A stretch of DNA of 64,000 nt, taken from sequence record MW233709. One strand, 5' to 3'. The stretch's first letter is position 1; the number at the start of each line of letters is the position of its first letter. Below the pieces are notes generated by a model. The model was not told the origin of the DNA. It saw nothing but the letters and a program-made list of their open reading frames with translations, and did not search any database. Below are positions 5,184-63,839 of the stretch, piece after piece. This stretch comes from Escherichia phage UPEC01. A program made the position numbers and the translations under genes.

Positions 5184-5216
5184 GTGTTTACAACGGCAAT
5201 GGATTGCCGTATGATT
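5184..5216 (+). promoter_or_regulatory. early-type promoter (GTGTTTACAA ... TATGATTA)
   Basis: -35-like GTTTACA and -10-like element with ~17 bp spacer upstream of imm-like ORF. Confidence 0.45.
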
Positions 5217-5252
5217 ACCCCATCAACTGATGAATAACTTGAGGATATTAAA

Positions 5253-5495
5253 ATGGAAACATTAATTGCGGGTACTGTTGTTCTTGGTGCAGGTTCTTTC
5301 TTCCTGGCTGCACTGGCATATTTTCTGCCGTGGATTATCGCGCTACTGCGTGGAACCAAAAGTAATTGCGGAATCTTCTTTGTTAACCTCCTGTTAGGTT
5401 GGACAATGGTCGGATGGTTTATTGCATTTATCTGGGCACTCGTTGCTGAACGTAAATCAAACGCACAAGTAATTATCATCAAGGAATCAAAATGA
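5253..5495 (+). CDS. imm: superinfection-immunity-like small membrane protein (Imm-like)
   Basis: 80 aa, two hydrophobic segments, motif LLLGWTMVGWFIAFIWAL typical of superinfection immunity family; T4 imm position next to gene 43. Confidence 0.55.
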   Translation: METLIAGTVVLGAGSFFLAALAYFLPWIIALLRGTKSNCGIFFVNLLLGWTMVGWFIAFIWALVAERKSNAQVIIIKESK

Positions 5496-5642: not shown

Positions 5643-6146
5643 ATGAAAAAGTTAGCTATCGCAGCTGTTATGCTGCTATCTGGTTGTGCTTACCAGGGTG
5701 ATGTTGTTAATGCCAACGAGATTGGTAAAGCGCGAATTGCTGCAGACCGTCAGGTGCATAATGGTTCCTTTGATTTCAAAGGTGGTACTGGACTTATCTA
5801 CAAACGCGACAACAATCAATGTGGAAACAACTGCGCGAAATATGCTCAACAAGAAATTGAGTACAAACGCGAGCAAGCTGCGAAGCATGACGAAATCATT
5901 GCCAAGCTGGAAGCAGAAACCAAGCGACAAAATGACCTGGACACTGTTAACCAGATTTCACAGGTCTGCATGTCATACATCAATATGCAGATAAACATCA
6001 TGCGCGCAGAAGCTTATCAGGCAGCGGAGATGGGTTCTCCAAAAGCTAATGAGTACCGCGATATGTATCAGCGTTCTGCTCAAAACCGTCTGAGCTATAT
6101 TAATAAATGTGTAGCTAAAGAGAAAGCACGCCAAGGTATTAACTGA
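5643..6146 (+). CDS. putative lipoprotein
   Basis: Signal peptide with lipobox LLSGC (MKKLAIAAVMLLSGCAYQ), 167 aa. Confidence 0.6.
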   Translation: MKKLAIAAVMLLSGCAYQGDVVNANEIGKARIAADRQVHNGSFDFKGGTGLIYKRDNNQCGNNCAKYAQQEIEYKREQAAKHDEIIAKLEAETKRQNDLDTVNQISQVCMSYINMQINIMRAEAYQAAEMGSPKANEYRDMYQRSAQNRLSYINKCVAKEKARQGIN

Positions 6147-6253
6147 TGTTATTATTACTTCTGATTGTTGTAACAGTAATTGGTTTGCTGCTATTAGAAA
6201 AGCGTAATAAGCATTTGGCTGAAGAAAACTGGAAATGTGGTAACGTTTACTGA
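6146..6253 (+). CDS. small membrane protein (35 aa)
   Basis: ATGA overlap with lipoprotein stop; MLLLLLIVVTVIGLLLLEKRNK... Confidence 0.3.
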   Translation: MLLLLLIVVTVIGLLLLEKRNKHLAEENWKCGNVY

Positions 6254-6337
6254 GTTAATTGCTCTAAAAATACAGTGATATAATTATCCTATCTTAAACC
6301 TGTGAGAAAAATATAATGGTGCCTATGGAAAAAATGA

Positions 6338-7516
6338 ATGTCTATTGCAGATTTGAAATCCCGTTTGATTAAAGCTTCTACATCCAAAATGACTGCGACT
6401 CTTACCAAGTCCAAGTTCTTTAATGATAAAGATGTAGTTCGTACAAAAATCCCGATGCTGAACATTGCAATCAGCGGTGCACTAGATGGTGGTATGCAGT
6501 CAGGTTTGACTATTTTTGCTGGTCCGTCAAAACACTTTAAATCCAATATGGGTTTAACGATGGTCTCTGCATATATGAACAAATACCCCGATGCAATCTG
6601 TTTGTTCTATGATTCAGAATTTGGTATCACAGAAGCATATCTTCGTGCAATGAAAGTTGACCCGGAACGTGTTATCCATACACCAATCCAGTCGGTTGAA
6701 CAATTGAAAGTTGATATGGTTAACCAGCTTGAAGCAATTGAGCGTGGTGAAAAAGTCATTATCTTTATTGACTCAATCGGTAACATGGCGTCGAAAAAAG
6801 AAACAGAAGATGCGATGAACGAAAAAGTTGTTGGTGATATGACTCGCGCTAAATCCCTGAAATCTCTGTTCCGTATTGTTACCCCATATTTTAGTATCAA
6901 GGATATTCCTTGTGTCGCGGTTAACCATACAATTGAGACGATTGAGATGTACAGCAAAACCGTTATGACCGGTGGCACAGGTGTTATGTATTCCGCAGAC
7001 ACCGTATTCATTATCGGCAAACGCCAGATTAAAGAAACTGGTAAAGAACTTGAAGGCTTCCAATTTGTTCTGAACGCCGAAAAATCTCGTATGGTCAAAG
7101 AGAAAAGTAAATTCTTCATTGATGTAAAATTCGATGGGGGTATTGACCCGTATTCTGGCCTGCTTGATATGGCAATGGAAATCGGATTTGTGGTGAAACC
7201 AAAAGTTGGTTGGTATAACCGTGAATATCTTGATGTTGAGACCGGCGAAATGGTCCGCGAAGAAAAATCATGGCGCGCAAAAGATACTAACTGCACCGAA
7301 TTCTGGGGTCCGCTGTTCAAGCACGAACCTTTCCGTGATGCAATTAAACGCCATTACCAACTGGGTGCAATCGATAGCAATGCTGTTGTTGATGCTGAAG
7401 TTGATGCGCTTATTGCCTCCAAGGTTGAAAAATACTCTGCTCCTGAAGGTAAGACAAAACCGTCCGCTGCAGATATCGAAAACGATTTAGATATGATGGA
7501 AGACCTTGATGAATGA
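6338..7516 (+). CDS. uvsX: recombinase UvsX (RecA-like)
   Basis: 392 aa, very high similarity to T4 UvsX (FAGPSKHFKSN Walker A, KDTNCTEFWGPLFKH). Confidence 0.97.
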   Translation: MSIADLKSRLIKASTSKMTATLTKSKFFNDKDVVRTKIPMLNIAISGALDGGMQSGLTIFAGPSKHFKSNMGLTMVSAYMNKYPDAICLFYDSEFGITEAYLRAMKVDPERVIHTPIQSVEQLKVDMVNQLEAIERGEKVIIFIDSIGNMASKKETEDAMNEKVVGDMTRAKSLKSLFRIVTPYFSIKDIPCVAVNHTIETIEMYSKTVMTGGTGVMYSADTVFIIGKRQIKETGKELEGFQFVLNAEKSRMVKEKSKFFIDVKFDGGIDPYSGLLDMAMEIGFVVKPKVGWYNREYLDVETGEMVREEKSWRAKDTNCTEFWGPLFKHEPFRDAIKRHYQLGAIDSNAVVDAEVDALIASKVEKYSAPEGKTKPSAADIENDLDMMEDLDE

Positions 7517-7850: not shown

Positions 7851-9274
7851 AAACTATTTTATCCCAGCTACTCTTTAACAAGGAATATTTTGTTAAAGTC
7901 TGGCCATATCTGAATAACACATATTTTGAAAAGGGTCCAGCAAAGACCCTTTTTAATACGATTAACGAACACGTAAAAGAATATCAAGCGGTACCAACTA
8001 AGACTGCACTTGATATCGCGCTCGACAGTTCTGACCTTTCTGAAGTCGAATATGAAGGCACAAAGAAACTCTTAGGAGTCCTGGCCGATACTCCAGAAGA
8101 CCAGGAATGGTTGGTTAAAGAAACCGAGAAGTATGTACAGAAGTCTGCGATGTTCAATGCCACATCCAGGATTATCGAAATCCAGAGCAATGCCGAACTT
8201 CCGAAAGATAAACGTGATAAACGAATCCCGGATATTGGTGCTATCCCTGACATCATGCGCGATGCATTGTCTATCTGTTTTGACTCTGCTCTGGGCCATG
8301 ACTGGTTAAACGATTACGAAGCTCGATTCCAGACTTATCTGAACAAATCGAAGAAGGTTCCGTTCCGTATTAACATCCTGAATAAAATCACGAAGGGCGG
8401 GGTTGAGTACGGTACAGAGAACGTTTTACTGGCCGGGACGAACGTCGGCAAATCCCTTGGACTTTGTTCGCTGGCGGCTGACTATCTTCAGACTGGTCAT
8501 AATGTGCTTTATATAAGCATGGAAATGGCTGAAGAAGTATGTGCCAAACGTATTGATGCCAACTTGCTGGATGTGTCTCTGGATGATATTGATGAAGGTC
8601 ATGTGTCATGGGCGGAATACAAAAGTAAGATGGAAAAATGGCGTGCAGCCGGGACCCTTGGGACTCTGAAGATAAAACAATATCCAACTGGCGGTGCTCA
8701 TGCGGATACCTTCCGTGCATTGCTGAATGAATACAAACTGAAGCAAGGGTTTGTGCCGGATGTGATTATTGTTGACTACCTGGCAATCTGTGCAAGCTCA
8801 AGACTGAAAACGTTTACCGAAAACAGTTACGGCCTGATTAAGATGGTTGCAGAAGAACTTCGTGGTCTGGCGGTCGAGAAAAATGTGGTCCTGTGGACTG
8901 CAGCGCAGACAACCAGGGGTGCGAACGTTGCAGCTGAGATTGATATGGCTGACATCGCTGAATCTTTTGGTATTGCTCACACGGCCGACTTTATGTTGGG
9001 TGTTGTTGAGACCGAAGAATTCGCTCAAATGGGACTACAGTTAATCAAACAGCTTAAGTCTCGTTACGGCGATAAGAACTACTATAATAAATTCAAGATG
9101 GGTGTTAAGAAAGGTAATCAGCGCTGGTACGAGGTTGATGATGATTCAGCTCCTAAACAAGGCCCTACGGTTAAAGAAGCCACTGGTGAGATGAATCGCC
9201 AGGCTGAAATGAATAGACAAACCAGGGTCAACAGGAGCGACCTGGACGACCTTGCTGCTCAAATGAAATTCTAA
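7835..9274 (+). CDS. 41: replicative helicase gp41 (DnaB-like)
   Basis: 479 aa, Walker A GTNVGKS, similarity to T4 gp41 N-terminus; start codon is GTG-type, exact start uncertain (7835/7838/7844). Confidence 0.93.
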   Translation: MVEVVETILSQLLFNKEYFVKVWPYLNNTYFEKGPAKTLFNTINEHVKEYQAVPTKTALDIALDSSDLSEVEYEGTKKLLGVLADTPEDQEWLVKETEKYVQKSAMFNATSRIIEIQSNAELPKDKRDKRIPDIGAIPDIMRDALSICFDSALGHDWLNDYEARFQTYLNKSKKVPFRINILNKITKGGVEYGTENVLLAGTNVGKSLGLCSLAADYLQTGHNVLYISMEMAEEVCAKRIDANLLDVSLDDIDEGHVSWAEYKSKMEKWRAAGTLGTLKIKQYPTGGAHADTFRALLNEYKLKQGFVPDVIIVDYLAICASSRLKTFTENSYGLIKMVAEELRGLAVEKNVVLWTAAQTTRGANVAAEIDMADIAESFGIAHTADFMLGVVETEEFAQMGLQLIKQLKSRYGDKNYYNKFKMGVKKGNQRWYEVDDDSAPKQGPTVKEATGEMNRQAEMNRQTRVNRSDLDDLAAQMKF

Positions 9275-9295
9275 AGACCTTCGGGTCTTTTTCAT
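9275..9295 (+). terminator. intrinsic terminator hairpin
   Basis: aagaccttcgggtctttttc after gene 41. Confidence 0.6.
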
Positions 9296-9300
9296 TTAGA

Positions 9301-9334
9301 GGTTTACAACACCATAAAAAGGGTGTACTATTAT
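9301..9334 (+). promoter_or_regulatory. early-type promoter
   Basis: GGTTTACAAC ... TATTAT followed by conserved leader CATCAACTACTGATGAGGATAATAAAATG. Confidence 0.5.
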
Positions 9335-9362
9335 CCCATCAACTACTGATGAGGATAATAAA

Positions 9363-9611
9363 ATGTTATTAGTTAATGTGCAGTACCAGTTCAAATCTGA
9401 AGAAGCTCTCCAAAAGTATGCTGATATTTGTGAGCATAATAAAAGAACAGCTGCCATTGTTGGTCTGAAGCCTTTTAAAATTTTGGATTGCTCCTTGAAC
9501 AGAGCAAGACGCTGGTGTAGTGTTGCCTGTCATGCTTCAGTTGAAGGGAATGATTATTTTTTCATTACTTTCAATGCACAAGATTTTCATTTAATTAATG
9601 AATTAAAATAG
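9363..9611 (+). CDS. hypothetical protein (82 aa)
   Basis: ORF with GAGGA RBS in conserved leader. Confidence 0.55.
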   Translation: MLLVNVQYQFKSEEALQKYADICEHNKRTAAIVGLKPFKILDCSLNRARRWCSVACHASVEGNDYFFITFNAQDFHLINELK

Positions 9612-9640
9612 TGTACAAGCCCCTTGTCTTAGGACATAAT
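9611..9640 (+). promoter_or_regulatory. early-type promoter
   Basis: GTGTACAA-N16-CATAAT followed by conserved leader GATTCCATACTGAGTTAC. Confidence 0.5.
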
Positions 9641-10000: not shown

Positions 10001-10021
10001 AGGGGCTTACAGCCCCTTTTT
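10001..10021 (+). terminator. intrinsic terminator hairpin
   Basis: aggggcttacagcccctttt. Confidence 0.6.
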
Positions 10022-10060
10022 CTTATGTTATAATGACTCTATCAACTACTGGAGAATAAA

Positions 10061-10378
10061 ATGAAAACCATTGATTGCAAGGCAGAATACAAAGTTTATT
10101 ATCATGGGTCAAGTTCTAATGCTGGAATCCAAAATATGCTTTGTCCTCCTGATGCAACTGGTGTTCTGTCAGAAGTTGGGCGTAAGAAAAATTTAGGGCG
10201 TGTGTTTTTTACTGAAGATATTGGTTTGGCGCGTATCTATGCAGGAAGAGCAGCTCGCTCATATGGAGGAGAACCCCGTCTTTATCGTGTGATTGCACCT
10301 GTTGACGTGGTTTGTTTAAATGATACTAAAGGCGCAACAGTTTATCACGCTGACTGGGCCTTCTGTGAGGAAATCTAA
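10061..10378 (+). CDS. hypothetical protein with HGS-like motif (candidate mini ADP-ribosyltransferase)
   Basis: 105 aa; KVYYHGSSSNAG resembles the H-G-S/T NAD-binding motif of H-Y-E class ARTs; assignment is speculative. Confidence 0.5.
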   Translation: MKTIDCKAEYKVYYHGSSSNAGIQNMLCPPDATGVLSEVGRKKNLGRVFFTEDIGLARIYAGRAARSYGGEPRLYRVIAPVDVVCLNDTKGATVYHADWAFCEEI

Positions 10379-10582
10379 ATGTATAAATTAGAGAACGTAG
10401 TATTTATTGGTTGGTTTGAAAATGGTAATATGTTTACCAAAGAAACCGCGCTGGATGTCAGTGACAAAAATATGATTGAATGGGTTACAGTGCAGTATGC
10501 GGAAGTGAATAATGCGCTGGTTAAAGCCTTTGTTAATGACAATAAAGTTTTTGAATATGATGCCCGCATTGAGGAAATCTAA
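10379..10582 (+). CDS. dmd: Dmd-like small protein (candidate antitoxin against RnlA/LsoA-type toxins)
   Basis: 67 aa, position between 41 and 61 as T4 dmd; GWF...MFTKE...YAEVN..ALVKAF recalled as Dmd-like; not database verified. Confidence 0.45.
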   Translation: MYKLENVVFIGWFENGNMFTKETALDVSDKNMIEWVTVQYAEVNNALVKAFVNDNKVFEYDARIEEI

Positions 10583-10924
10583 ATGACTTTTAATCCAGAA
10601 GACCGCGTAAAAGTAACAATCAAAGTGAGTGCCGTTGGCGTTCCATCTTTTGAGCGCTCAAGTATGTTCCATCCCGCAGGTATTCACTGGTATGTTCAGA
10701 AGACTGCTGATAACTATAATGCGCTGGTTGAAGCTTTTGTTGATGACAAGCTAATTCATAAAGTAGACATGCGTAAGGGTACTGCATTGCGTAATCTGAT
10801 TTTGACCGTTGAAGCGCAACTGGTAAATGAAGAAATCTGCCTTACTGATATTGAAGCAGCTCTTCATATTGCACGTGCTGAATATTACAAATTGACTGGT
10901 TTTTCAGTTGAAGGTGAAAAATAA
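10583..10924 (+). CDS. hypothetical protein, tandem paralog of the Dmd-like protein
   Basis: 113 aa; shares YNALVEAFVDDK/NNALVKAFVNDNK segment with preceding ORF. Confidence 0.55.
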   Translation: MTFNPEDRVKVTIKVSAVGVPSFERSSMFHPAGIHWYVQKTADNYNALVEAFVDDKLIHKVDMRKGTALRNLILTVEAQLVNEEICLTDIEAALHIARAEYYKLTGFSVEGEK

Positions 10925-10925
10925 G

Positions 10926-10956
10926 TGTACATCAAAGGGGTAATGCAGTATATTAT
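10926..10956 (+). promoter_or_regulatory. early-type promoter
   Basis: GTGTACA ... TATATTAT then leader CCTATCAACTACTGAGGAG. Confidence 0.45.
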
Positions 10957-10982
10957 CCCTATCAACTACTGAGGAGATTGAA

Positions 10983-11276
10983 ATGAAAAAGTTATTAATC
11001 GCAGCAATTCTTACCGTAGCATCATGTGGTACAGCCCCAGTTACTGCTGGGCTTGATAAAGACCTTTGTGAGTGGTCCATGACTGCGGACCAGACTGATG
11101 TTGAACACCAGATTTATGCTGACATCATGAACATTACTAAACGTGACCACCCAGATATGGTTAAAGAAGTATCTGACCAACTGGCTTCTGGTGACGTTAT
11201 GCAGTATAACTATGTTCTGTATTGCGATGCTTCATTTGACAACAGCAAGATTGTTCAATGGGTTACAGGTGAATAA
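10983..11276 (+). CDS. secreted/lipoprotein, spackle (Sp)-like by position and size
   Basis: 97 aa with signal peptide MKKLLIAAILTVASCG; T4 sp sits between dmd and 61 and is 97 aa. Confidence 0.45.
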   Translation: MKKLLIAAILTVASCGTAPVTAGLDKDLCEWSMTADQTDVEHQIYADIMNITKRDHPDMVKEVSDQLASGDVMQYNYVLYCDASFDNSKIVQWVTGE

Positions 11277-17120: not shown

Positions 17121-17176
17121 TTTACTTACTTCCCTCCTAATGACATAATGGTCTTTCTTACAACAGAGAGGCCATT

Positions 17177-17737
17177 ATGAACATCATCAAATCTGATACC
17201 GAACCCAACCAGTTAAAATTTAGTGAAATGGAGATAGCTTCATTATTTGAATGCCGTACATCAAAGGTTGATAAAACCTTGCATTCAAACATCAACTCAA
17301 TTATCAAGCCAAGGTTGTCTATACCCGATACAGTCTTGTGGCGCGGGGTAACCCAGCAAGAGATTGATTTGTTAGATGAAGCAAAAGAATCAATGCAACC
17401 TTTTGAATTTGGACGGATAACCTCCTTTACAGAAGACTATGGTATTGCCAGGGATTTTGCTGCAATGGAATATGCATCAAGGACTATCGTCAGATTGAAT
17501 CAGACAAAAGCTTTTTGTTACCATGATGCGATGCGCAAAATCGCGCTTGATGTTCCGCTGGAATTCTTCAATACAGTTTCTGGTTCCGAACAGGCAGCAA
17601 CGTTAAGACGTGAAGAATACATGGACATGATTGATTCTGAGCTTGAATGGTTTGTTCCAGTTGACCAGAAATTCGTGGTGGTTGATGCTGGATTTGTTGG
17701 TGATTATTATGTTCTTGACTGTGTACAAGAGCAATAA
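17177..17737 (+). CDS. putative ADP-ribosyltransferase (ModA/ModB-like), copy 1
   Basis: 186 aa; R-S-E class signature candidates WRGV ... SFTEDY ... SELEWFVP; T4 modA/modB position. Confidence 0.45.
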   Translation: MNIIKSDTEPNQLKFSEMEIASLFECRTSKVDKTLHSNINSIIKPRLSIPDTVLWRGVTQQEIDLLDEAKESMQPFEFGRITSFTEDYGIARDFAAMEYASRTIVRLNQTKAFCYHDAMRKIALDVPLEFFNTVSGSEQAATLRREEYMDMIDSELEWFVPVDQKFVVVDAGFVGDYYVLDCVQEQ

Positions 17738-17781
17738 GACACGTTAAGATGCTCCTATCAACTACTGATGAGGATAATAAA

Positions 17782-18396
17782 ATGCTGTACACTGATGACG
17801 TTTTGAATGGAATTATTGACACTGCCGCTTCTAGTGAGTCTTTTCGTGACCAATGTCAAGCAGAGATTGATGCTCTTTATACAGATAATGAGCAATCAGT
17901 ACTCTGGCAGTGTATGGAAAATAAACCTGACCTGATTCAAGAAGACTTAACCAGGATTATCCGCAACAATCTGAATACTACACCGCCGGCAGCGTTGTTC
18001 CGCGGTATATCAAAGAAAACCATGGAATACCTGGAAGATTTAAGATATGTTGGTGCGACAATTGAGTTCAACCGTGTGATGAGTTTTTCCAGAGACTGGC
18101 AGGTTGCAAGAAATTTCGCATCATATAGTTTCTATGGCACAAGGAATATTTTCTGCATAAACAATGCACCTTATGCGTATAACTATCAGGAAGCAATCTT
18201 TAAAATGATTTGCGGTGCTCCTCCTGAAGAGTTCAATGGTGCATATCCAGAAGCAACCAGGAAGTCAAACTTACACCTAGTTAATGATGAGGATGAGTTT
18301 ATGTTTCCCGCTGGGACTACGCTTCGCGTAGATTTGATTGAGAAACACCCATTGAATAACCTTTATACTGTTTGGCATTTGACTGTTTTGAACTAA
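17782..18396 (+). CDS. putative ADP-ribosyltransferase (ModA/ModB-like), copy 2
   Basis: 204 aa from ATG 17782; FRGIS ... SFSRDW ... EDEFMFPAG (R, S-x-S, E-x-E candidates). Confidence 0.45.
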   Translation: MLYTDDVLNGIIDTAASSESFRDQCQAEIDALYTDNEQSVLWQCMENKPDLIQEDLTRIIRNNLNTTPPAALFRGISKKTMEYLEDLRYVGATIEFNRVMSFSRDWQVARNFASYSFYGTRNIFCINNAPYAYNYQEAIFKMICGAPPEEFNGAYPEATRKSNLHLVNDEDEFMFPAGTTLRVDLIEKHPLNNLYTVWHLTVLN

Positions 18397-21858: not shown

Positions 21859-21888
21859 GTGTACAAGGCCAATGGAAAGAGACATAAT
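21859..21888 (+). promoter_or_regulatory. early-type promoter
   Basis: AAAAAGTAGTGTACAA-N16-CATAAT then leader CATCAACTACTGATGAGGATAACAAAATG. Confidence 0.5.
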
Positions 21889-21919
21889 CATCTCATCAAC
21901 TACTGATGAGGATAACAAA

Positions 21920-22177
21920 ATGATTACTTCTTTTGAAATTGGCCAACAATATGAAATGTCCGCTCTTCAAGCTGCTGAAGCAGGTCTGACTAAAGCGTTT
22001 GAATGTGCATTTGCAAATATTCGTGGTAAAATCTTTACTGTCAATAAAATTGCGGTATATGATAAAGAAACTGATATGAACAAAGGCATCTACCTGAACG
22101 TGTCAAATGCAAAAGGTCGTCGTGAAATTATGGTTGTACAACCTAATCAACTGGCGATGTTCAATAAGGTTGCATAA
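21920..22177 (+). CDS. hypothetical protein (85 aa)
   Basis: Start ATG 21920 after conserved leader; track start 21872 lies inside the promoter/leader. Confidence 0.5.
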   Translation: MITSFEIGQQYEMSALQAAEAGLTKAFECAFANIRGKIFTVNKIAVYDKETDMNKGIYLNVSNAKGRREIMVVQPNQLAMFNKVA

Positions 22178-22936: not shown

Positions 22937-22966
22937 GTGTACAAACTCGTGGGGCCAGAGTATAAT
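22937..22966 (+). promoter_or_regulatory. early-type promoter with -10 inside a palindrome
   Basis: GTGTACAA ... gtggggccagagTATAATggtcccac. Confidence 0.5.
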
Positions 22967-23008
22967 GGTCCCACTGGAGAATAAACTTATTAATCAAGAG
23001 AGAAAATT

Positions 23009-23500
23009 ATGAAAGTTGAAGCTGGTGATATTGTACGCGTTTCTAAAGAATCTCGTTCTAAAGCTGCTGGTCGTTTTGTTGAGGTTGTGGGTCTTCGCAC
23101 TAATTTAGTAGGTGGAATTAAAGAAGTTAAAGTGCGTATTATTCCTAAAAATGGCCAGACTGAAACTCAATTGGCTTATGTACATCCTAAATTCCTGGAA
23201 TCAACTGAATTTACTGGATATATCGCTCCTGTGGTTGAAGAAGTTGAAACCATTGACCAGTCTCATGTTGGGGTTGATTTTAAATGGAAATTAGGTAAAG
23301 GTGTCTTTTTCGTTTCACCTAAACCGTTTGAATACAATTGCAAGTATGGTCCGACTTATGAAACCACTAGCATGTCTGGTTATATCACAGACCAGTGGGT
23401 TGAAGAAGGGGTTAAACTGTATAATATTGTGTTCCTTGGAACCTTTAAGGTTGTTCCTGAAAGTTTTATCGTTGAGTATGCTGATATTCATTTTGCCTAA
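23009..23500 (+). CDS. hypothetical protein (163 aa), paralog of 22177 C-terminal domain
   Basis: ...TDQWVEEGVKLYNIVFLGTFKVVP. Confidence 0.55.
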   Translation: MKVEAGDIVRVSKESRSKAAGRFVEVVGLRTNLVGGIKEVKVRIIPKNGQTETQLAYVHPKFLESTEFTGYIAPVVEEVETIDQSHVGVDFKWKLGKGVFFVSPKPFEYNCKYGPTYETTSMSGYITDQWVEEGVKLYNIVFLGTFKVVPESFIVEYADIHFA

Positions 23501-27088: not shown

Positions 27089-27112
27089 AAAAGGACCTTC
27101 GGGTCCTTTTTT
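27089..27112 (+). terminator. intrinsic terminator hairpin
   Basis: aaaaggaccttcgggtcctttttt. Confidence 0.65.
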
Positions 27113-27288
27113 ATTATGTACAAGCCATAAAAATTGCGTTAAGATGTCCTTGAGGTGAAAATATGATTATGTCTGACGGAAGTTTAGTTAATCTACATTT
27201 TTTATTATGTACAAGCCATAAAAATTGCGTTAAGATGTCCTTGAGGTGAAAATATGATTATGTCTGACGGAAGTTTAGTTAATCTACA
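27107..27288 (+). repeat. perfect 91-bp tandem duplication (2 copies) covering promoter, RBS and first 12 codons
   Basis: 27107-27197 identical to 27198-27288. Confidence 0.95.
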
Positions 27289-31174: not shown

Positions 31175-31444
31175 ATGATTAAGCATTTCAATGTGTCAGA
31201 CCGTGACATCAAAGTTTCAAATCTCCGGGGTCACCATTACGCAGGAATAGTTTACTGTGGTAAGCTCATTAAGCATGAAGGTGATGTTCACTATGGCTGG
31301 TTGGAATGTGATGAAGTAGTTGTTGGGGAATTCCCTGACCCGGATTCTGATACATTTGATGCTAATGACCGTTTGTACTATGGCGAGCTTCATATCCGAG
31401 GAATCGTCGGTATCGATGAGGTTCAAGATGATTCAGAAGAGTAA
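31175..31444 (+). CDS. hypothetical protein (89 aa)
   Basis: ORF. Confidence 0.45.
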   Translation: MIKHFNVSDRDIKVSNLRGHHYAGIVYCGKLIKHEGDVHYGWLECDEVVVGEFPDPDSDTFDANDRLYYGELHIRGIVGIDEVQDDSEE

Positions 31445-32418: not shown

Positions 32419-32574
32419 ATGAAACCTGCTCAATATGCAATGACTTTATACCTTGAAGTTAATGGCGATATTACTGAATTTTTTAAATTAATGCAACAGC
32501 GCGGAAAAAGTTTTGCAGTTACTGAGCGTCAATTTTACGCTTGCCGTAAAAATACATACAATCGTTATGCGTGA
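32419..32574 (+). CDS. hypothetical protein (51 aa)
   Basis: ORF with GGAGAATAAAATG leader. Confidence 0.35.
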   Translation: MKPAQYAMTLYLEVNGDITEFFKLMQQRGKSFAVTERQFYACRKNTYNRYA

Positions 32575-32584
32575 GGAAAACAGA

Positions 32585-32942: not shown

Positions 32943-32970
32943 TGTACATCTCCGGTGGTTGTAGTATAAT
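32943..32970 (+). promoter_or_regulatory. early-type promoter
   Basis: AGTGTACA ... TATAAT then CCTATCAACTACTGGAG leader. Confidence 0.5.
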
Positions 32971-32996
32971 GAACCTATCAACTACTGGAGATGATT

Positions 32997-33113
32997 ATGA
33001 AAAAGTTACTTAAAGCCATTTGGAACATGTTTGTACTGTTTGTTGTCCTGAGCATTTTCCCAATTGTTTTTATGATTGACCATGTACGCGTTTACTTTAA
33101 CTATTTCTTTTGA
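32997..33113 (+). CDS. small membrane protein (38 aa)
   Basis: MKKLLKAIWNMFVLFVVLSIFPIVFMI... Confidence 0.3.
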   Translation: MKKLLKAIWNMFVLFVVLSIFPIVFMIDHVRVYFNYFF

Positions 33114-33330: not shown

Positions 33331-33572
33331 AACTTTTTAAAGACATTGCAGTTGGTGAAAAATTTGTCCTGGGTAATGGTCAACAACTGATTCGCATTTC
33401 GCCTTTAATGGATAACAGTGAGCGCCCTGTGCGTACTGAAAACTGTTTGGATTATCCTTTTTATCAGAAACGTTTTGCAATTGAAAATAATACTGAGTGC
33501 TTCACAGTTGATGAACTGATGGAATCATCAGAAGAAGTTGACTTGTGGGATGGCGCGGTAGATGTAGAATAG
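33327..33572 (+). CDS. hypothetical protein (81 aa)
   Basis: ATGA-coupled ORF. Confidence 0.45.
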   Translation: MKLFKDIAVGEKFVLGNGQQLIRISPLMDNSERPVRTENCLDYPFYQKRFAIENNTECFTVDELMESSEEVDLWDGAVDVE

Positions 33573-33601
33573 TGTACAAACTCATGGGAGCAGAGTATAA
33601 T
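33572..33601 (+). promoter_or_regulatory. early-type promoter
   Basis: GTGTACAA ... gggagcagagTATAATgttccc. Confidence 0.5.
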
Positions 33602-33639
33602 GTTCCCGTGGATAATAAAATTTAATTGAGGAAAATATT

Positions 33640-33984
33640 ATGTCTAAAGTATTTTTTGGTAATCGCAACATTATGTTCTTTAAACAGATTAGCATATCAG
33701 AAGCATTTGATTTAAGTTATTCAGGTGGTACAAAAGCTGTTAACCTTAAAAATTTGATGTCTGCAGAATTTGCATTCTATCAGGACCCTGAAACTGGTTT
33801 CTATAAATTTATTAAGTTCCGCATGACTATGGACCGCGATTATCGCGATGTTTATTATACAAGTTATGAAAGTGTTGTGAATGCAATTCGTGAAGCTTAT
33901 GGGTTGGATTCGTTGTCTCTTGACCGTCTGTATAATGCAAGCCTTTACACCAGTGGATTTATTTTAGAACAACTACAAAAATAG
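33640..33984 (+). CDS. hypothetical protein (114 aa)
   Basis: ORF with GAGGAAAA RBS. Confidence 0.5.
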   Translation: MSKVFFGNRNIMFFKQISISEAFDLSYSGGTKAVNLKNLMSAEFAFYQDPETGFYKFIKFRMTMDRDYRDVYYTSYESVVNAIREAYGLDSLSLDRLYNASLYTSGFILEQLQK

Positions 33985-34013
33985 TGTACAAACTCTTGGG
34001 GTCAGAGTATAAT
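33984..34013 (+). promoter_or_regulatory. early-type promoter with -10 inside palindrome
   Basis: GTGTACAA ... ggggtcagagTATAATgacccc. Confidence 0.5.
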
Positions 34014-34057
34014 GACCCCACTGGAGCACAAAACTTTAACTTACTGAGGAAATTAAT

Positions 34058-34507
34058 ATGACTACTTACATGACCCGTCGTGACGTACTGAATGCTGGTG
34101 CTACCACTGTTGCTTATATCCATAATGGTAATTATGTTGCCGGTCGCCCAACTAAAGAAGCTATCGCTCAACCAGGTTTTTATTTCGTGGTTAAAGGTGA
34201 AGGCGAATCACGTATTGTTGCTGCACGTTTTTATGTTGGTAACCAACGTTCACAACAAGGGTTTGACACTGTATTAAGTCACATCCGCAAACAACGTTCA
34301 CAATTGTCTCGCACAATGGCGAACAATGGTGTTATCTATGAAGTCCTGTTTGTTCCAGTTTCTAAAATGAAACCCCTGACAACTGGTTATGGTAAAGGTC
34401 AAATTGCGATGGCGTTCACTCGCTCACATAGTTCTGATTGCCAGACCCTTTCAGAAATGAATCGCATGCTTGCTGATAACTTTAAATTCATTCTGCAGAG
34501 CTATTAA
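34058..34507 (+). CDS. hypothetical protein (149 aa; Ndd candidate by size/position)
   Basis: T4 ndd (151 aa) lies between denB and stp/ac; sequence not verified. Confidence 0.4.
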
Positions 34508-34508
34508 T

Positions 34509-34682
34509 ATGAGACATTTCTTTACAATGGGTTACCTATTTGTTTTAGCCCTATTTGTTATTACAGGAGCCTTTATAGCCTTTGGTGCTCCATTTAATGA
34601 TAAAGTTGCTGTTACTATGTGCTTTAGTGGTGGGTATATCTGTTTTGAACGCTTATGCAAAATGTGTGGTATATATGAGTAA
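34509..34682 (+). CDS. small membrane protein (57 aa)
   Basis: ATG 34509 ([25 protein letters not shown]). Confidence 0.35.
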
Positions 34683-34762: not shown

Positions 34763-34918
34763 ATGAATAAATTTGTTCATGGTGTAGCTTTTTTCTGCTG
34801 GTCATTTTTATTTGTTGGAACATTAATAACTGGTGAAACTTCAGTATTTCTGCAGTCAACAGCTCAAGGTGTATTAGCAGTTTTATCACTATTTAAATTA
34901 TTGGATAAAAATGATTAA
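34763..34918 (+). CDS. small membrane protein (51 aa; ac-like by size/position)
   Basis: GAGGAAAA RBS; hydrophobic. Confidence 0.4.
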   Translation: MNKFVHGVAFFCWSFLFVGTLITGETSVFLQSTAQGVLAVLSLFKLLDKND

Positions 34919-37475: not shown

Positions 37476-37485
37476 GGAAATTGTT

Positions 37486-37662
37486 ATGAACATCTATCTG
37501 ATTAAGTACCTAAAAGATGGTAAAGAACGTGATTACCAAATCCCCGCAAAAAATGAATATGATGCGTGTGTTCGCCTTGGTCAGATTCATGGTGATGACC
37601 GTGAATATCGCAATGATGTTGAAATTGAAATCCAATCTGTAACTTTGAAAGTGAGAGGCTAA
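37486..37662 (+). CDS. hypothetical protein (58 aa)
   Basis: ORF with GAGGAAA RBS. Confidence 0.35.
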   Translation: MNIYLIKYLKDGKERDYQIPAKNEYDACVRLGQIHGDDREYRNDVEIEIQSVTLKVRG

Positions 37663-53569: not shown

Positions 53570-53599
53570 GTGTACAAGTCCCTTGAGCTAAGGCATAAT
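53570..53599 (+). promoter_or_regulatory. early-type promoter
   Basis: AAAAAGTAGTGTACAA-N16-CATAAT then GATTCCATCAACTACTGA leader. Confidence 0.5.
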
Positions 53600-53637
53600 G
53601 ATTCCATCAACTACTGATAACAACTGAGGAAATAAAA

Positions 53638-54000
53638 ATGGAAATCGGCAAAAAATATGAGTTCAATCCACATCGTATTAAATCTTTCATTGATATTAGT
53701 TCATCGAATGCTAGTATGGTTGACATCATCCAAGAAAATGGCGGTTGGTTTGAAGTTAAATCAATATCAAGTGCAGACGGCTATGATTATGTAACCGAAA
53801 TCATTTGTGCTAATGGTGCAATCTATAATGATGATGGCATGGGTGATGATTATTTTGAACTTAGTGAAGAAGAGTTTTATTGCTTCCGTGAATACTCTAG
53901 TTATACAAAAACACCTTCAGGGGCGGTTTCTATTAATTGTGTTGTAGATGTTAATAACGTCGACCAAATCATTGAACTTCTACAAAAAGCTTTCAAATAG
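53638..54000 (+). CDS. hypothetical protein (120 aa), paralog family with 54350
   Basis: DGYDY...DDYFELSEEEF. Confidence 0.5.
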   Translation: MEIGKKYEFNPHRIKSFIDISSSNASMVDIIQENGGWFEVKSISSADGYDYVTEIICANGAIYNDDGMGDDYFELSEEEFYCFREYSSYTKTPSGAVSINCVVDVNNVDQIIELLQKAFK

Positions 54001-54002
54001 CA

Positions 54003-54033
54003 GTTTACAACGGGTCTATGATTATGTTATTAT
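54003..54033 (+). promoter_or_regulatory. early-type promoter
   Basis: AGTTTACAA ... TATTAT then CCTATCAACTACATGAGGAAAATAAAATG. Confidence 0.45.
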
Positions 54034-54062
54034 AGACCTATCAACTACATGAGGAAAATAAA

Positions 54063-54290
54063 ATGGCTAAGGTTAATATTGATATCGTTGATTTTGAATA
54101 CACTTACGAAGTTATTCGTAATCGGTATCCTTCTTTGTGTATGACTTACATTAAAGATACTGAAGTCTTTGGTATTCAAATTGAAGTCCAAGGTCCTCTT
54201 GAAGATATTACCCGCTTTATGCAAAATGAATATTGTGACGGTATGTACCCAGAAGACGCTGAATTTTATATGGGTTTGATTCAAGCTTAG
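54063..54290 (+). CDS. hypothetical protein (75 aa)
   Basis: ORF. Confidence 0.45.
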
Positions 54291-63027: not shown

Positions 63028-63056
63028 GTGTACAAGCCCCTCCTTTCTATACATAA
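63028..63056 (+). promoter_or_regulatory. early-type promoter
   Basis: GGGGTGTACAA ... CATAAT then GGTTCCATCAACTACTGATGAGGA leader. Confidence 0.45.
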
Positions 63057-63088
63057 TGGTTCCATCAACTACTGATGAGGACTAAAAC

Positions 63089-63322
63089 ATGTTAAACTTA
63101 ATTACAAATGAAAGAGTTACACAGGCATATGGTGACAGTAATGACGGAATCTATGTCTACAAGGGAGACCGCCGGATTGGTTTCATTACTGACCTGAAGG
63201 CCAAATTGTTAAAAGAACTGAAAGCTCAAACAGGTGATTCTGGGTTTAGAGCAAGAGCCAAAAAGAAAGATGAACGCCTGGGTGCCAACTCTTTTGGTCC
63301 CCGGGGTTACAACCGCTACTAA
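63089..63322 (+). CDS. hypothetical protein (77 aa), paralog of N-terminus of next ORF
   Basis: YGDSNDGIYVYKGDRRIGFITDLKAKL vs YGDRHDGIYVYKGTKKIGLMTDLRKKL. Confidence 0.45.
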   Translation: MLNLITNERVTQAYGDSNDGIYVYKGDRRIGFITDLKAKLLKELKAQTGDSGFRARAKKKDERLGANSFGPRGYNRY

Positions 63323-63335
63323 TGAGGAAAATATT

Positions 63336-63839
63336 ATGGATATGCAACTGATTTCAAATGAAATGATTGTCAATGAATATGGTGACCGTCATGACGGAAT
63401 TTATGTCTATAAAGGGACCAAGAAAATTGGTCTCATGACTGACTTGCGGAAAAAACTCGCCTCCGATAAAAAGTTGAAGGCGAAACAAAAAGAATATCGT
63501 GATAAAAAATCAGAAGAGCGGAAAGAAGCACTGCATGAATCTGTTCCTGAAATGGTTGACTTCTTAAAGAACCATTTGGTTAAATATGATGCAGAAGTGT
63601 TCATCAATCAGACCCAACCTAATGTGCATATCAATGGATGTGTTTGTTATGTTGTGGTTGAACCCCTGACACTTCAACACCGTCTGGGAATTAAACACCC
63701 AGTGTTGACCCAGGATGATATGGCGGATGAAGTTGGTAATCAGTTCCGCATTTCAGCATCTGACAGTACAAATCACATCCTCCTGAATGGTTTATCCCAG
63801 GATGATATTGTTGAGGTAATCATCAAGTTATGCAAATAA
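63336..63839 (+). CDS. Alc-like protein (by size and position)
   Basis: 167 aa from ATG 63336 (same length as T4 Alc), directly after gene 63 as in T4; sequence unverified. Confidence 0.45.
   Translation: MDMQLISNEMIVNEYGDRHDGIYVYKGTKKIGLMTDLRKKLASDKKLKAKQKEYRDKKSEERKEALHESVPEMVDFLKNHLVKYDAEVFINQTQPNVHINGCVCYVVVEPLTLQHRLGIKHPVLTQDDMADEVGNQFRISASDSTNHILLNGLSQDDIVEVIIKLCK

Follow-up and report, generated by a model that had tools for sequence, protein, structure and literature searches.

Repeated leaders of early genes in phage UPEC01 are probably the 5' untranslated regions of T-even-type early-promoter transcripts

A near-identical leader recurs upstream of unrelated open reading frames (ORFs) of phage UPEC01, and its sequence setting makes it very probable that this leader, here called family A, is the 5'UTR of transcripts from early promoters of the T-even type. 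A fuller explanation, in which this early-promoter 5'UTR has a RegB-sensitive Shine-Dalgarno (SD) half and belongs to a PeSL-type cassette, is considered quite likely. Copies were sought throughout the window, that is, the whole stretch of 64,000 nucleotides that was analysed, starting from the site at 9337-9365 (CATCAACTACTGATGAGGATAATAAAATG). The 11-mer ATCAACTACTG was found in the window as eight exact copies, all on the plus strand and starting at 9338, 10041, 10961, 17757, 21895, 32977, 53606 and 63064, where chance predicts about none (the expectation with one mismatch is 1.25). A degenerate copy, ATCAACTACATGAGGAAAATAAAATG, starts at 54040, and a further shortened copy, ATCAACTGATGAATAACTTGAGGATATTAAAATG, starts at 5222 upstream of imm. 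The original prediction of a repeated leader in front of unrelated ORFs is thereby borne out, with coordinates that were off by 1-4 nt, with a ninth copy that is the degenerate one (start 54040, not 54038), and with the copy at 5222 absent from its list. With up to three mismatches allowed, the 18-mer ATCAACTACTGATGAGGA gave seven matches in the window, again all on the plus strand, against 0.05 expected from shuffles. The family-A repeat is real and non-random. The full 18-mer is present only in the four copies at 9338, 17757, 21895 and 63064, three of which have about 27 of 28 nt in common up to the ATG, and the remaining copies carry the common 5' half followed by different SD regions (GGAGAAUAAAAUG, GAGGAGAUUGAAAUG, GGAGAUGAUUAUG, GAGGAAAUAAAAAUG).

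With 99.7% identity to Escherichia virus TH41 and about 97% to SP18, VR20 and their relatives, the window is assigned by sequence to a T4-like phage of the genus Gaprivervirus (TH41/SP18 type). Comparison with the SP18 annotation showed the window to be syntenic, which gives the gene order gp43, imm, uvsX, gp41, dmd, sp, gp61, modB, modA, srd, dda, dexA, motB, gp39, rIIA and rIIB and places regA at 1798-2166. After rIIB, a plastic region leads to tail-fibre genes on the opposite strand, beyond which lie rnh, gp32, frd, td, nrdAB, rnlA and alc. Every family-A copy lies on the early strand in front of an early gene or ORFan of the same orientation; the genes behind the copies are imm, a goF-like ORF, the dmd operon, sp, modA, frd.2, frd.3 and an alc-like ORF. 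We recognized some 24 convincing early promoters in the window, ten of them with a family-A leader; five have a second type of leader (family B, ATACTGAGTTAC...) and three have a third type, family C, in which a hairpin covers the -10. Other leaders thus serve about half of the window's early promoters, and family A marks about 45%. Since families B and C also serve early promoters, the family-A block is not required for early expression.

In all ten window copies, the leader is preceded by a -35 element of the GTTTAC type (TGTACA, TTTACA or CTTACA), a spacer of 16-18 nt and a -10 element of the TAnnnT type, and ATCAACT follows the -10 hexamer after exactly 6 nt, so that the leader does lie immediately downstream of the -10, as had been claimed. 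In the TH41 genome, 17 of the 35 plus-strand occurrences of ATCAACT passed a -35/-10 filter, every one at the same 6-nt distance, and none of the 20 on the minus strand did. An eighteenth copy (67460), promoter-linked but with a -35 that failed the filter, was added after inspection; all 18 are on the early strand. The information profile of these 18 copies reaches 1.0-1.9 bits per position at -3..-1 (CCc) and at +8..+12 (ACTGA), positions that had played no part in the selection of the copies. These values are comparable to those of the promoter hexamers, while the spacer has 0-0.8 bits. Further peaks were seen at -36..-30 and -12..-7, and A is enriched at -44..-40. The UP-like A-rich stretch and the C at -3..-1 match the published description of T4-like early promoters, in which C is preferred at -3..-1 and the logos end at the start site (PMC1524935); for T4 itself, 'additional regions of consensus' beyond UP, -35, TGn and -10 have been mentioned (PMC2988021). 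The possibility that the copies are parts of one larger, silent repeat was rejected, as the -35/-10 spacers, at 0-0.8 bits per position, and the flanks are unrelated from copy to copy. The repeated unit is a short one that is centred on the start site and directly adjoins the promoter.

The start site was assigned by analogy with T4. In the T4 GenBank record (AF158101), the early promoter Pe133295 is numbered by the seventh base after its -10, and by the same rule +1 of the UPEC01 copies would be the A of ATCAACT. The 11-mer ATCAACTACTG is then predicted to be +1..+11 of early transcripts from sigma-70-type promoters. An AUG follows 20-32 nt after the predicted +1, with GAGG or GGAG as the SD, so with this start site the "leader" would be the whole 5'UTR, 20-32 nt long.

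The reported site itself (9303..9365, plus strand, as for every copy below) has its -35, TTTACA, at 9303-9308 and its -10, TACTAT, at 9326-9331, followed by the discriminator tatccc, a predicted +1 at 9338 and the 25-nt leader AUCAACUACUGAUGAGGAUAAUAAA up to an AUG at 9363. The 82-aa ORF behind it is similar to the N-terminus of goF; there is a terminator-like hairpin at about 9273-9290, and the spacer contains a hairpin of 5 bp. In the second copy (10006..10063), the -35 CTTACA occupies the loop of a GGGGC...GCCCC hairpin and is followed by the -10 TATAAT (10029-10034), a predicted +1 at 10041, the leader AUCAACUACUGGAGAAUAAA and an AUG at 10061, which opens a 105-aa ORF and then dmd. The third copy (10926..10985) combines a TGTACA -35 with a TATATT -10 (10949-10954) that lies within a hairpin, and its leader AUCAACUACUGAGGAGAUUGAA runs from a predicted +1 at 10961 to the AUG of spackle (sp) at 10983. 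At the fourth (17722..17784), the TGTACA -35 falls within the 3' end of modB, the -10 is TAAGAT (17745-17750), and a leader the same as that of the reported site extends from a predicted +1 at 17757 to the AUG at 17782 of a modA-like ADP-ribosyltransferase gene. The fifth (21860..21922), with TGTACA, CATAAT (21883-21888), a predicted +1 at 21895, the leader AUCAACUACUGAUGAGGAUAACAAA and an AUG at 21920, precedes an 85-aa ORF downstream of dexA, at the map position of the T4 promoter P8.1/motB.2.

The sixth copy (32943..32999) has TGTACA, a 16-nt spacer and TATAAT (32965-32970), a predicted +1 at 32977 and the leader AUCAACUACUGGAGAUGAUU; the probable AUG of its 38-aa ORF is at 32997, and an in-frame AUG at 32991 abuts the SD. 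The seventh (53571..53640) lies just downstream of the gene 32 terminator hairpin and consists of TGTACA, CATAAT (53594-53599), a predicted +1 at 53606 and a 32-nt leader, AUCAACUACUGAUAACAACUGAGGAAAUAAAA, ending at the AUG (53638) of a frd.2-like gene; its promoter body resembles those of the family-B promoters at 9612 and 36571, yet its leader is of family A. The eighth copy, which is the degenerate one (54004..54065), has TTTACA, an 18-nt spacer and a TATTAT -10 (54028-54033) within a GGGUCUAU...AUAGACCU hairpin, with a predicted +1 at 54040 and the leader AUCAACUACAUGAGGAAAAUAAA in front of the AUG (54063) of a frd.3-like gene. The ninth (63029..63091) again places its -35, TGTACA, in a hairpin loop (GGGGU...GCCCC); CATAAT (63052-63057), a predicted +1 at 63064, the leader AUCAACUACUGAUGAGGACUAAAAC and an AUG at 63089 follow, and the 77-aa ORF, located ahead of alc, is like the Alc N-terminus. 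The tenth copy, which is shortened (5187..5255), comprises TTTACA, a hairpin in the spacer, TATGAT (5210-5215), a predicted +1 at 5222, the leader AUCAACUGAUGAAUAACUUGAGGAUAUUAAA and the AUG of imm at 5253. Several copies contain an upstream AUG inside the leader (CUGAUGAGG), which lacks an SD and is not in frame with the ORF.

The block extends well beyond this genus. A scan of the T4 genome (AF158101) found ATCAACTACTGA located 6 nt past TACTAT at the cef, imm.1, e.8, trna.4, motA and denB promoters, in the layout TACTAT acaact ATCAACTACTGA..., and shorter forms (ATCAACTAC.., ATCAACTG.., ATCAAAA..) at several other T4 promoters. In Dhakavirus-like contigs, ATCAACT comes after TACTAT agacct. 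A 30-nt query had matches in 877 phage records, mostly T4-like, of which the weakest are at chance level; the hosts of the dominant T4-like matches are Escherichia, Shigella, Klebsiella, Salmonella and Yersinia. The family-A promoters resemble the T4 early promoters (Pe) in the GTTTAC-type -35, the TAnnnT -10 at 16-18 nt, the A-rich upstream region and the C at -3..-1, in the presence of the block 6 nt after the -10, and in their location on the early strand upstream of early genes and ORFans. They differ in that the -35 is mostly TGTACA here and the -10 is more varied (CATAAT, TAAGAT). In addition, T4 runs on with ...GATACnGAAAAnAACUUGGAGAAUAAAAUG whereas the phage studied here goes straight to GAUGAGGAUAAUAAAAUG, which makes its leader shorter, and the genes that bear the element are different in the two phages. 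The original prediction had not recognized that the 5' half, which begins at the predicted transcription start, directly adjoins the promoter, nor that T4 has it too.

Between T4 and Gaprivervirus, the trna.4 leader is identical at 22 of 22 positions and its spacer at 8 of 17; for sp (the third copy above), the leader is identical at 18 of 22 positions and the promoter spacer at 6 of 17. The sp orthologues of Dhakavirus-like relatives have leaders that vary at +6..+12 between nearly identical flanks, and therefore part of the 5' half, at least, is dispensable there. A search for loci related to Spackle returned seven close relatives, too few for a broad constraint analysis, and a literature search for descriptions of Gaprivervirus promoters gave nothing relevant. 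The 5' half is best understood as a component of the T-even early-promoter consensus rather than as an operator in its own right.

The operator reading would make CCY followed by AUCAACUACUGA (-3..+12) a recognition site through which a phage or host factor would act on a defined subset of the immediate-early transcripts or promoters. In its specific form, an RNA operator, or a DNA operator at +1..+12, would be used by a trans-acting phage factor, RegA or another protein, to shut off or time a subset of the immediate-early genes. Such a site would be in keeping with positions +8..+12 being as informative as the promoter hexamers, with the conservation from T4 to Gaprivervirus, and with the presence of the block on only about 45% of the early promoters, which defines a subset; regA is present in the window, and the T4 literature calls the mechanism that stops early transcription unknown (PMC2988021). 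On the other hand, no predicted RNA structure and no covariation mark a structured operator, a search of the whole window against the Rfam families at the gathering threshold returned no matches, and the block degenerates freely in the Dhakavirus-like phages. We know of no factor that binds the sequence of the family-A 5' half, and the targets of RegA are AU-rich sites at the AUG, mostly in replication genes. On balance we regard it as improbable, both for the specific RegA-type operator and for a recognition site in the wider sense. If it were true, the block would be a candidate for the switch-off of T4 early transcription minutes after infection, or for the site of a factor that reads early mRNAs at their 5' end.

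For the 3' half of the leader, a partial explanation is offered by RegB. In T4, this nuclease cleaves early mRNAs inside GGAG, for the most part in SDs, and ribosomal protein S1 is its cofactor (PMC3014915). The RegB/S1 target is an 11-nt single-stranded sequence, GGAGRAYARAA, for which GGAGAAUAAAA is the T4 optimum; GGAU sites are cut in vivo only in orf 55.2 and motB.2, both with the strict A-rich tail, and GGAA and GGAC are poor substrates (Durand 2006, PMC1702504). The T4 motB.2 TIR reads GAGGAUAAUAAAAUG; ..CUACUGAGGAUAAUAAAAUG. Four of the ten family-A copies fit this consensus: GGAUAAUAAAA at 9353 and 17772 is the same 11-mer as in the T4 motB.2 TIR, GGAGAAUAAAA at 10051, in the second copy, is the T4 optimal site itself, and GGAUAACAAAA is found at 21910. 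The others do not, having GGAG with a divergent tail (10973 and 32987), GGAU with one tail mismatch (5243), or GGAA or GGAC (53628, 54053 and 63079). The pattern GGAKRAYARAA occurs eight times in the window, against 0.85 expected, always on the plus strand and always in early leaders, of families A, B and C. In TH41 there are 19 such sites on the plus strand and one on the minus strand, and 16 of the 19, as read from their listing, run straight into the AUG. The genus does have a gene for the nuclease: SP18 carries an annotated regB (SP18_gp116), and tblastn with T4 RegB gave a match in TH41 at 83619-84062 (59% identity, E 2e-53) and none within the window.

Nine leaders were folded, with minimum free energies of -1 to -4.4 kcal/mol and z values of +0.1 to +1.5 relative to shuffles, that is, no better than shuffled sequences. 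All nine are predicted from these models to be unstructured with their sites unpaired, and such a lack of structure suits ribosome binding and RegB alike. From their location in early-gene TIRs, the predicted single-strandedness and the consensus match, the four consensus copies are likely RegB targets, cleavage itself being inferred. The suggestion that the conservation reflects an RNase site was accordingly supported for the four copies that fit GGAGRAYARAA, the strict-tail GGAU included; of the rest, three have GGAA or GGAC, which RegB cuts poorly. Because of these three copies, RegB cannot explain what unites the family, and the uniting part is the 5' half. RegB accounts for the extra conservation of the best-conserved subfamily, not for the definition of the family.

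The folding results also bear on an RNA-level function of the 5' half, in which a 5'-terminal hairpin (AUCA/UGAU) would act against RNase E/RppH, or the leader would pair with 16S rRNA as an enhancer like the T7 gene 10 epsilon. A 4-bp AUCA...UGAU stem does appear in some minimum-energy folds, and the sequence is C/A/U-rich as in known enhancers. This stem, however, amounts to about -1 kcal/mol, is absent from the centroid folds and is lost in the CUGGAG/CUGAGG copies. A 5'-terminal hairpin or other leader structure was rejected, as nine of nine leaders fold no better than shuffles. Enhancer pairing was rejected as well, since the best duplex with E. coli 16S rRNA has -8.3 kcal/mol compared with -9.9 +/- 1.6 for shuffled 13-mers, 85% of which pair with the 16S rRNA at least as well. 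An RNA element of either kind is therefore very hard to credit.

Whether the 5' half is constrained mainly at the level of the promoter and of initiation, a role that we infer, we judge to be an even question, although initiation or promoter escape is the likeliest of the roles considered. In favor of it are the fixed distance to the -10, the contiguity with the C-rich -3..-1, the use at promoters only and the retention between T4 and Gaprivervirus; against a strict requirement are the variability at +6..+12 in the Dhakavirus-like sp leaders and the fact that other leader families exist. At strong phage promoters, abortive cycling and escape are controlled by the initial transcribed sequence. 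By analogy, the initial transcribed sequences of T5 N25, T7 A1 and lambda PL may be compared, as they too have a +1..+10 that starts with AU(C) behind a very strong sigma-70 promoter, but they have no sequence family relationship to the leader described here. No published test of a promoter-level role for +1..+12 was found in the literature searched.

The recurrence of the block before unrelated ORFs is reminiscent of PeSL cassettes, which consist of an early promoter, a stem-loop and an SD with ATG (Arbiol 2010, PMC2839356; Comeau 2014, PMC4122927). Like these, the family-A units combine an early promoter, a stem-loop in variable position and a 3'-terminal SD and ATG; they cluster between the small ORFs of plastic regions, and indels that distinguish close relatives are associated with them, the crossovers falling between -10 and ATG. 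Stem-loops upstream of, around or over the promoter boxes were found for about 7-8 of the ten copies; they are clear at 9338, 10041, 10961, 54040, 63064 and 5222, to which the terminator before 53606 is added, and weak or absent at 17757, 21895 and 32977. Differences are that PeSLs have been described for RB49/phi1, T4/PST and KVP40/nt-1, not for Gaprivervirus, and that the published definition stresses promoter boxes and stem-loop and singles out no conserved +1..+12.

An instance of exchange at the block was found outside the window, where an 84-aa ORF of TH41, missing from SP18, lies between the copies at 67460 and 67769. The single promoter of SP18 at this locus is the promoter of the first of these two copies joined to the leader of the second and a trna.4-like ORF, and this hybrid implies a crossover within the common gtatgattatcYcATCAACTACTG. 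Within the window, no indels at family-A leaders or their 5' halves were found relative to TH41 and SP18; the indel junctions seen are at stop codon/-35 or at SD..ATG, none in a family-A 5' half. The indel of ORF113 (10561-10916 compared with SP18) was tried as a candidate for a junction in the leader and was rejected, its junctions being at the dmd end and at 'gaaaaataagtgtaca' (stop codon/-35). In the 31-38 kb region, the Gaprivervirus indels are ORF-precise with junctions at SD..ATG. The order of frd.2 and frd.3, both of which have a family-A leader, is reversed relative to T4. The idea of homology arms for cassette exchange, put forward in the original prediction, is thus supported by the TH41/SP18 crossover inside the -10/leader block and by the published RB49/phi1 mini-circles, in which the crossovers lie between the -10 and the SD/ATG (PMC2839356); no such crossover was seen within the window.

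In its pure form, this idea leaves the 5' half without a function of its own: a short common homology would be kept uniform by recombination or gene conversion, and the block would persist as only cassettes with matching joints can be exchanged. Besides the crossovers just described and the ORF-precise indels, it would be in line with the variation of the Dhakavirus-like sp leaders at +6..+12 and with the mixed combinations in which promoter bodies, 5' halves and SD halves occur, as in the promoter at 53571 or in GGAGAAUAAAAUG, which is found behind A, B and C leaders. An arm, however, needs neither an invariant 6-nt distance from the -10 nor a use restricted to promoters, and a tract of 11-28 nt with unrelated sequence on both sides lends itself poorly to gene conversion over and over again. 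Retention of the leader at T4/Gaprivervirus orthologues whose adjacent spacers have diverged looks instead like purifying selection, and most of the junctions examined fall at the stop codon/-35 or the ATG rather than in the 5' half. Homology arms alone are an unlikely explanation of the 5' half.

The favored explanation, the composite of early-promoter 5'UTR, RegB-sensitive SD half and cassette, would operate as follows. Family A would be the complete short 5'UTR (20-32 nt) of immediate-early mRNAs that begin at the start of a host sigma-70-type promoter. Its 5' half, from -3 to +12, would be that part of the T-even early-promoter consensus which covers the start site and the initial transcribed sequence. 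It would serve the choice of the start site, efficient initiation and the escape of transcription from very strong promoters, and it would also provide each transcript with an unstructured, G-poor 5' end. The 3' half would be an A-rich, unstructured SD region, which in the most conserved copies (GGAUAAUAAAAUG, GGAGAAUAAAAUG) may double as the 11-nt target of RegB and ribosomal protein S1. Early messages would then be translated at once and inactivated afterwards by a cut inside the SD. Promoter, leader and TIR would move as one small PeSL-type cassette, which would account for the recurrence before unrelated ORFs, and the repeated block would supply short homology for the gain, loss and reshuffling of cassettes.

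The components of family A, namely the early-promoter consensus, the RegB-sensitive TIR and the PeSL-like cassettes, are all already known in T4-type phages, and the leader is an ordinary, largely described feature of the T-even phages. For the phage studied here, the motif pinpoints ten early promoters in the window with their likely start sites and true start codons, corrects ORF calls that start at 17749 or 32991, and flags four early genes as probable targets of RegB. It also marks the junctions used in the exchange of small early-gene cassettes between T4-like phages. Of wider interest is the finding that, from T4 to Gaprivervirus, the conservation of +1..+12 matches that of the promoter hexamers, and this stretch may have a role in initiation and escape, in the fate of the mRNA, or as a recombination joint only.

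A second recurrent leader, family B (AUACUGAGUUAC(A/C)...), was found in the window. It starts 6 nt 3' of the -10 element and follows early promoters whose -35 elements lie at 9612, 18457, 32356, 36571 and 54982. Three of the family-B copies end in ACUGGAGAAUAAAAUG, which is the optimal translation initiation region (TIR) of the type associated with the phage endoribonuclease RegB. The motif ACUGA is common to the leaders of family B and family A, the latter being the short leader that begins at the predicted +1 of early promoters.

In a third promoter type the -10 element is enclosed by a hairpin, GGGnCC agag TATAAT GGnCCC. Promoters of this type were located at 22938-23010, 33573-33640 and 33985-34060, with a T4 counterpart at 7214. 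The 17-nt spacer of the motB promoter, which belongs to this type, matches that of T4 at 15 of 17 positions, whereas the spacers at other orthologous promoters have diverged from T4. The leader of the third type carries an A-rich GGAG/GGAU site 5' of the Shine-Dalgarno (SD) sequence, as does T4 motB RNA, which has served as the model RegB substrate. At the start of modB (17135-17195), the -10 region of the gene's own promoter is also predicted to pair with the gene's SD and AUG in a strong hairpin, with a folding energy of -20.8 kcal/mol and a z of -5.8. According to this fold, the modB TIR would be masked in read-through transcripts, and transcripts from the proximal promoter would retain just a short stem. 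The arrangement resembles that known for T4 gene e.

Small ORFs have been precisely inserted, deleted or replaced across the Gapriverviruses TH41, TH54, TH40, TH15 and TH55 (window positions 31182-31427, 32421-32575, 34520-34673, 34766-34910 and 37482-37661). The junctions of these changes lie within the microhomology at SD..ATG, for example GGAGAAUAAAAUG versus GAGGAAAACAGAAUG. One entire promoter cassette (33562-33624) is missing from TH15. SP18 lacks both a segment of about 110 bp 5' of uvsX (6144-6255) and, in the dmd-sp interval, a 113-aa ORF (10583-10924) whose junctions are the end of dmd and the stop codon/-35 sequence gaaaaataagtgtaca. A perfect tandem duplication (27107-27288; 2.0 copies, 100% match) has a 91-bp unit that spans a complete early promoter together with the TIR and the initial codons of an ORF; the unit is single-copy in TH41 and SP18.

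In almost every Dhakavirus-like contig from IMG/VR, the sp leader varies at +6 to +12 and in the SD-AUG spacer (contig positions ~1470-1500), the variants being ACTAACG, AAACATG, ACTAATG, ACTACCG and CACTAATG. The remaining sp upstream region is nearly identical across these contigs. In these contigs, the sp leader just 3' of the start site is a local hot spot of variation.

The frd.2-like (53638-54000) and frd.3-like (54063-54290) genes are in reversed order relative to T4 and each has its own family-A promoter-leader. T4 frd.2 has a hairpin only and no promoter of its own. Two other ORFs behind family-A leaders have the look of early-gene fragments: ORF77 (63089-63322), directly 5' of the full alc gene (63336-63839), shows resemblance to the N-terminus of Alc (64% across 33 aa), and ORF82 (9363-9611) to that of goF (41% across 39 aa). 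Both may be partial duplications that arose from cassette recombination.
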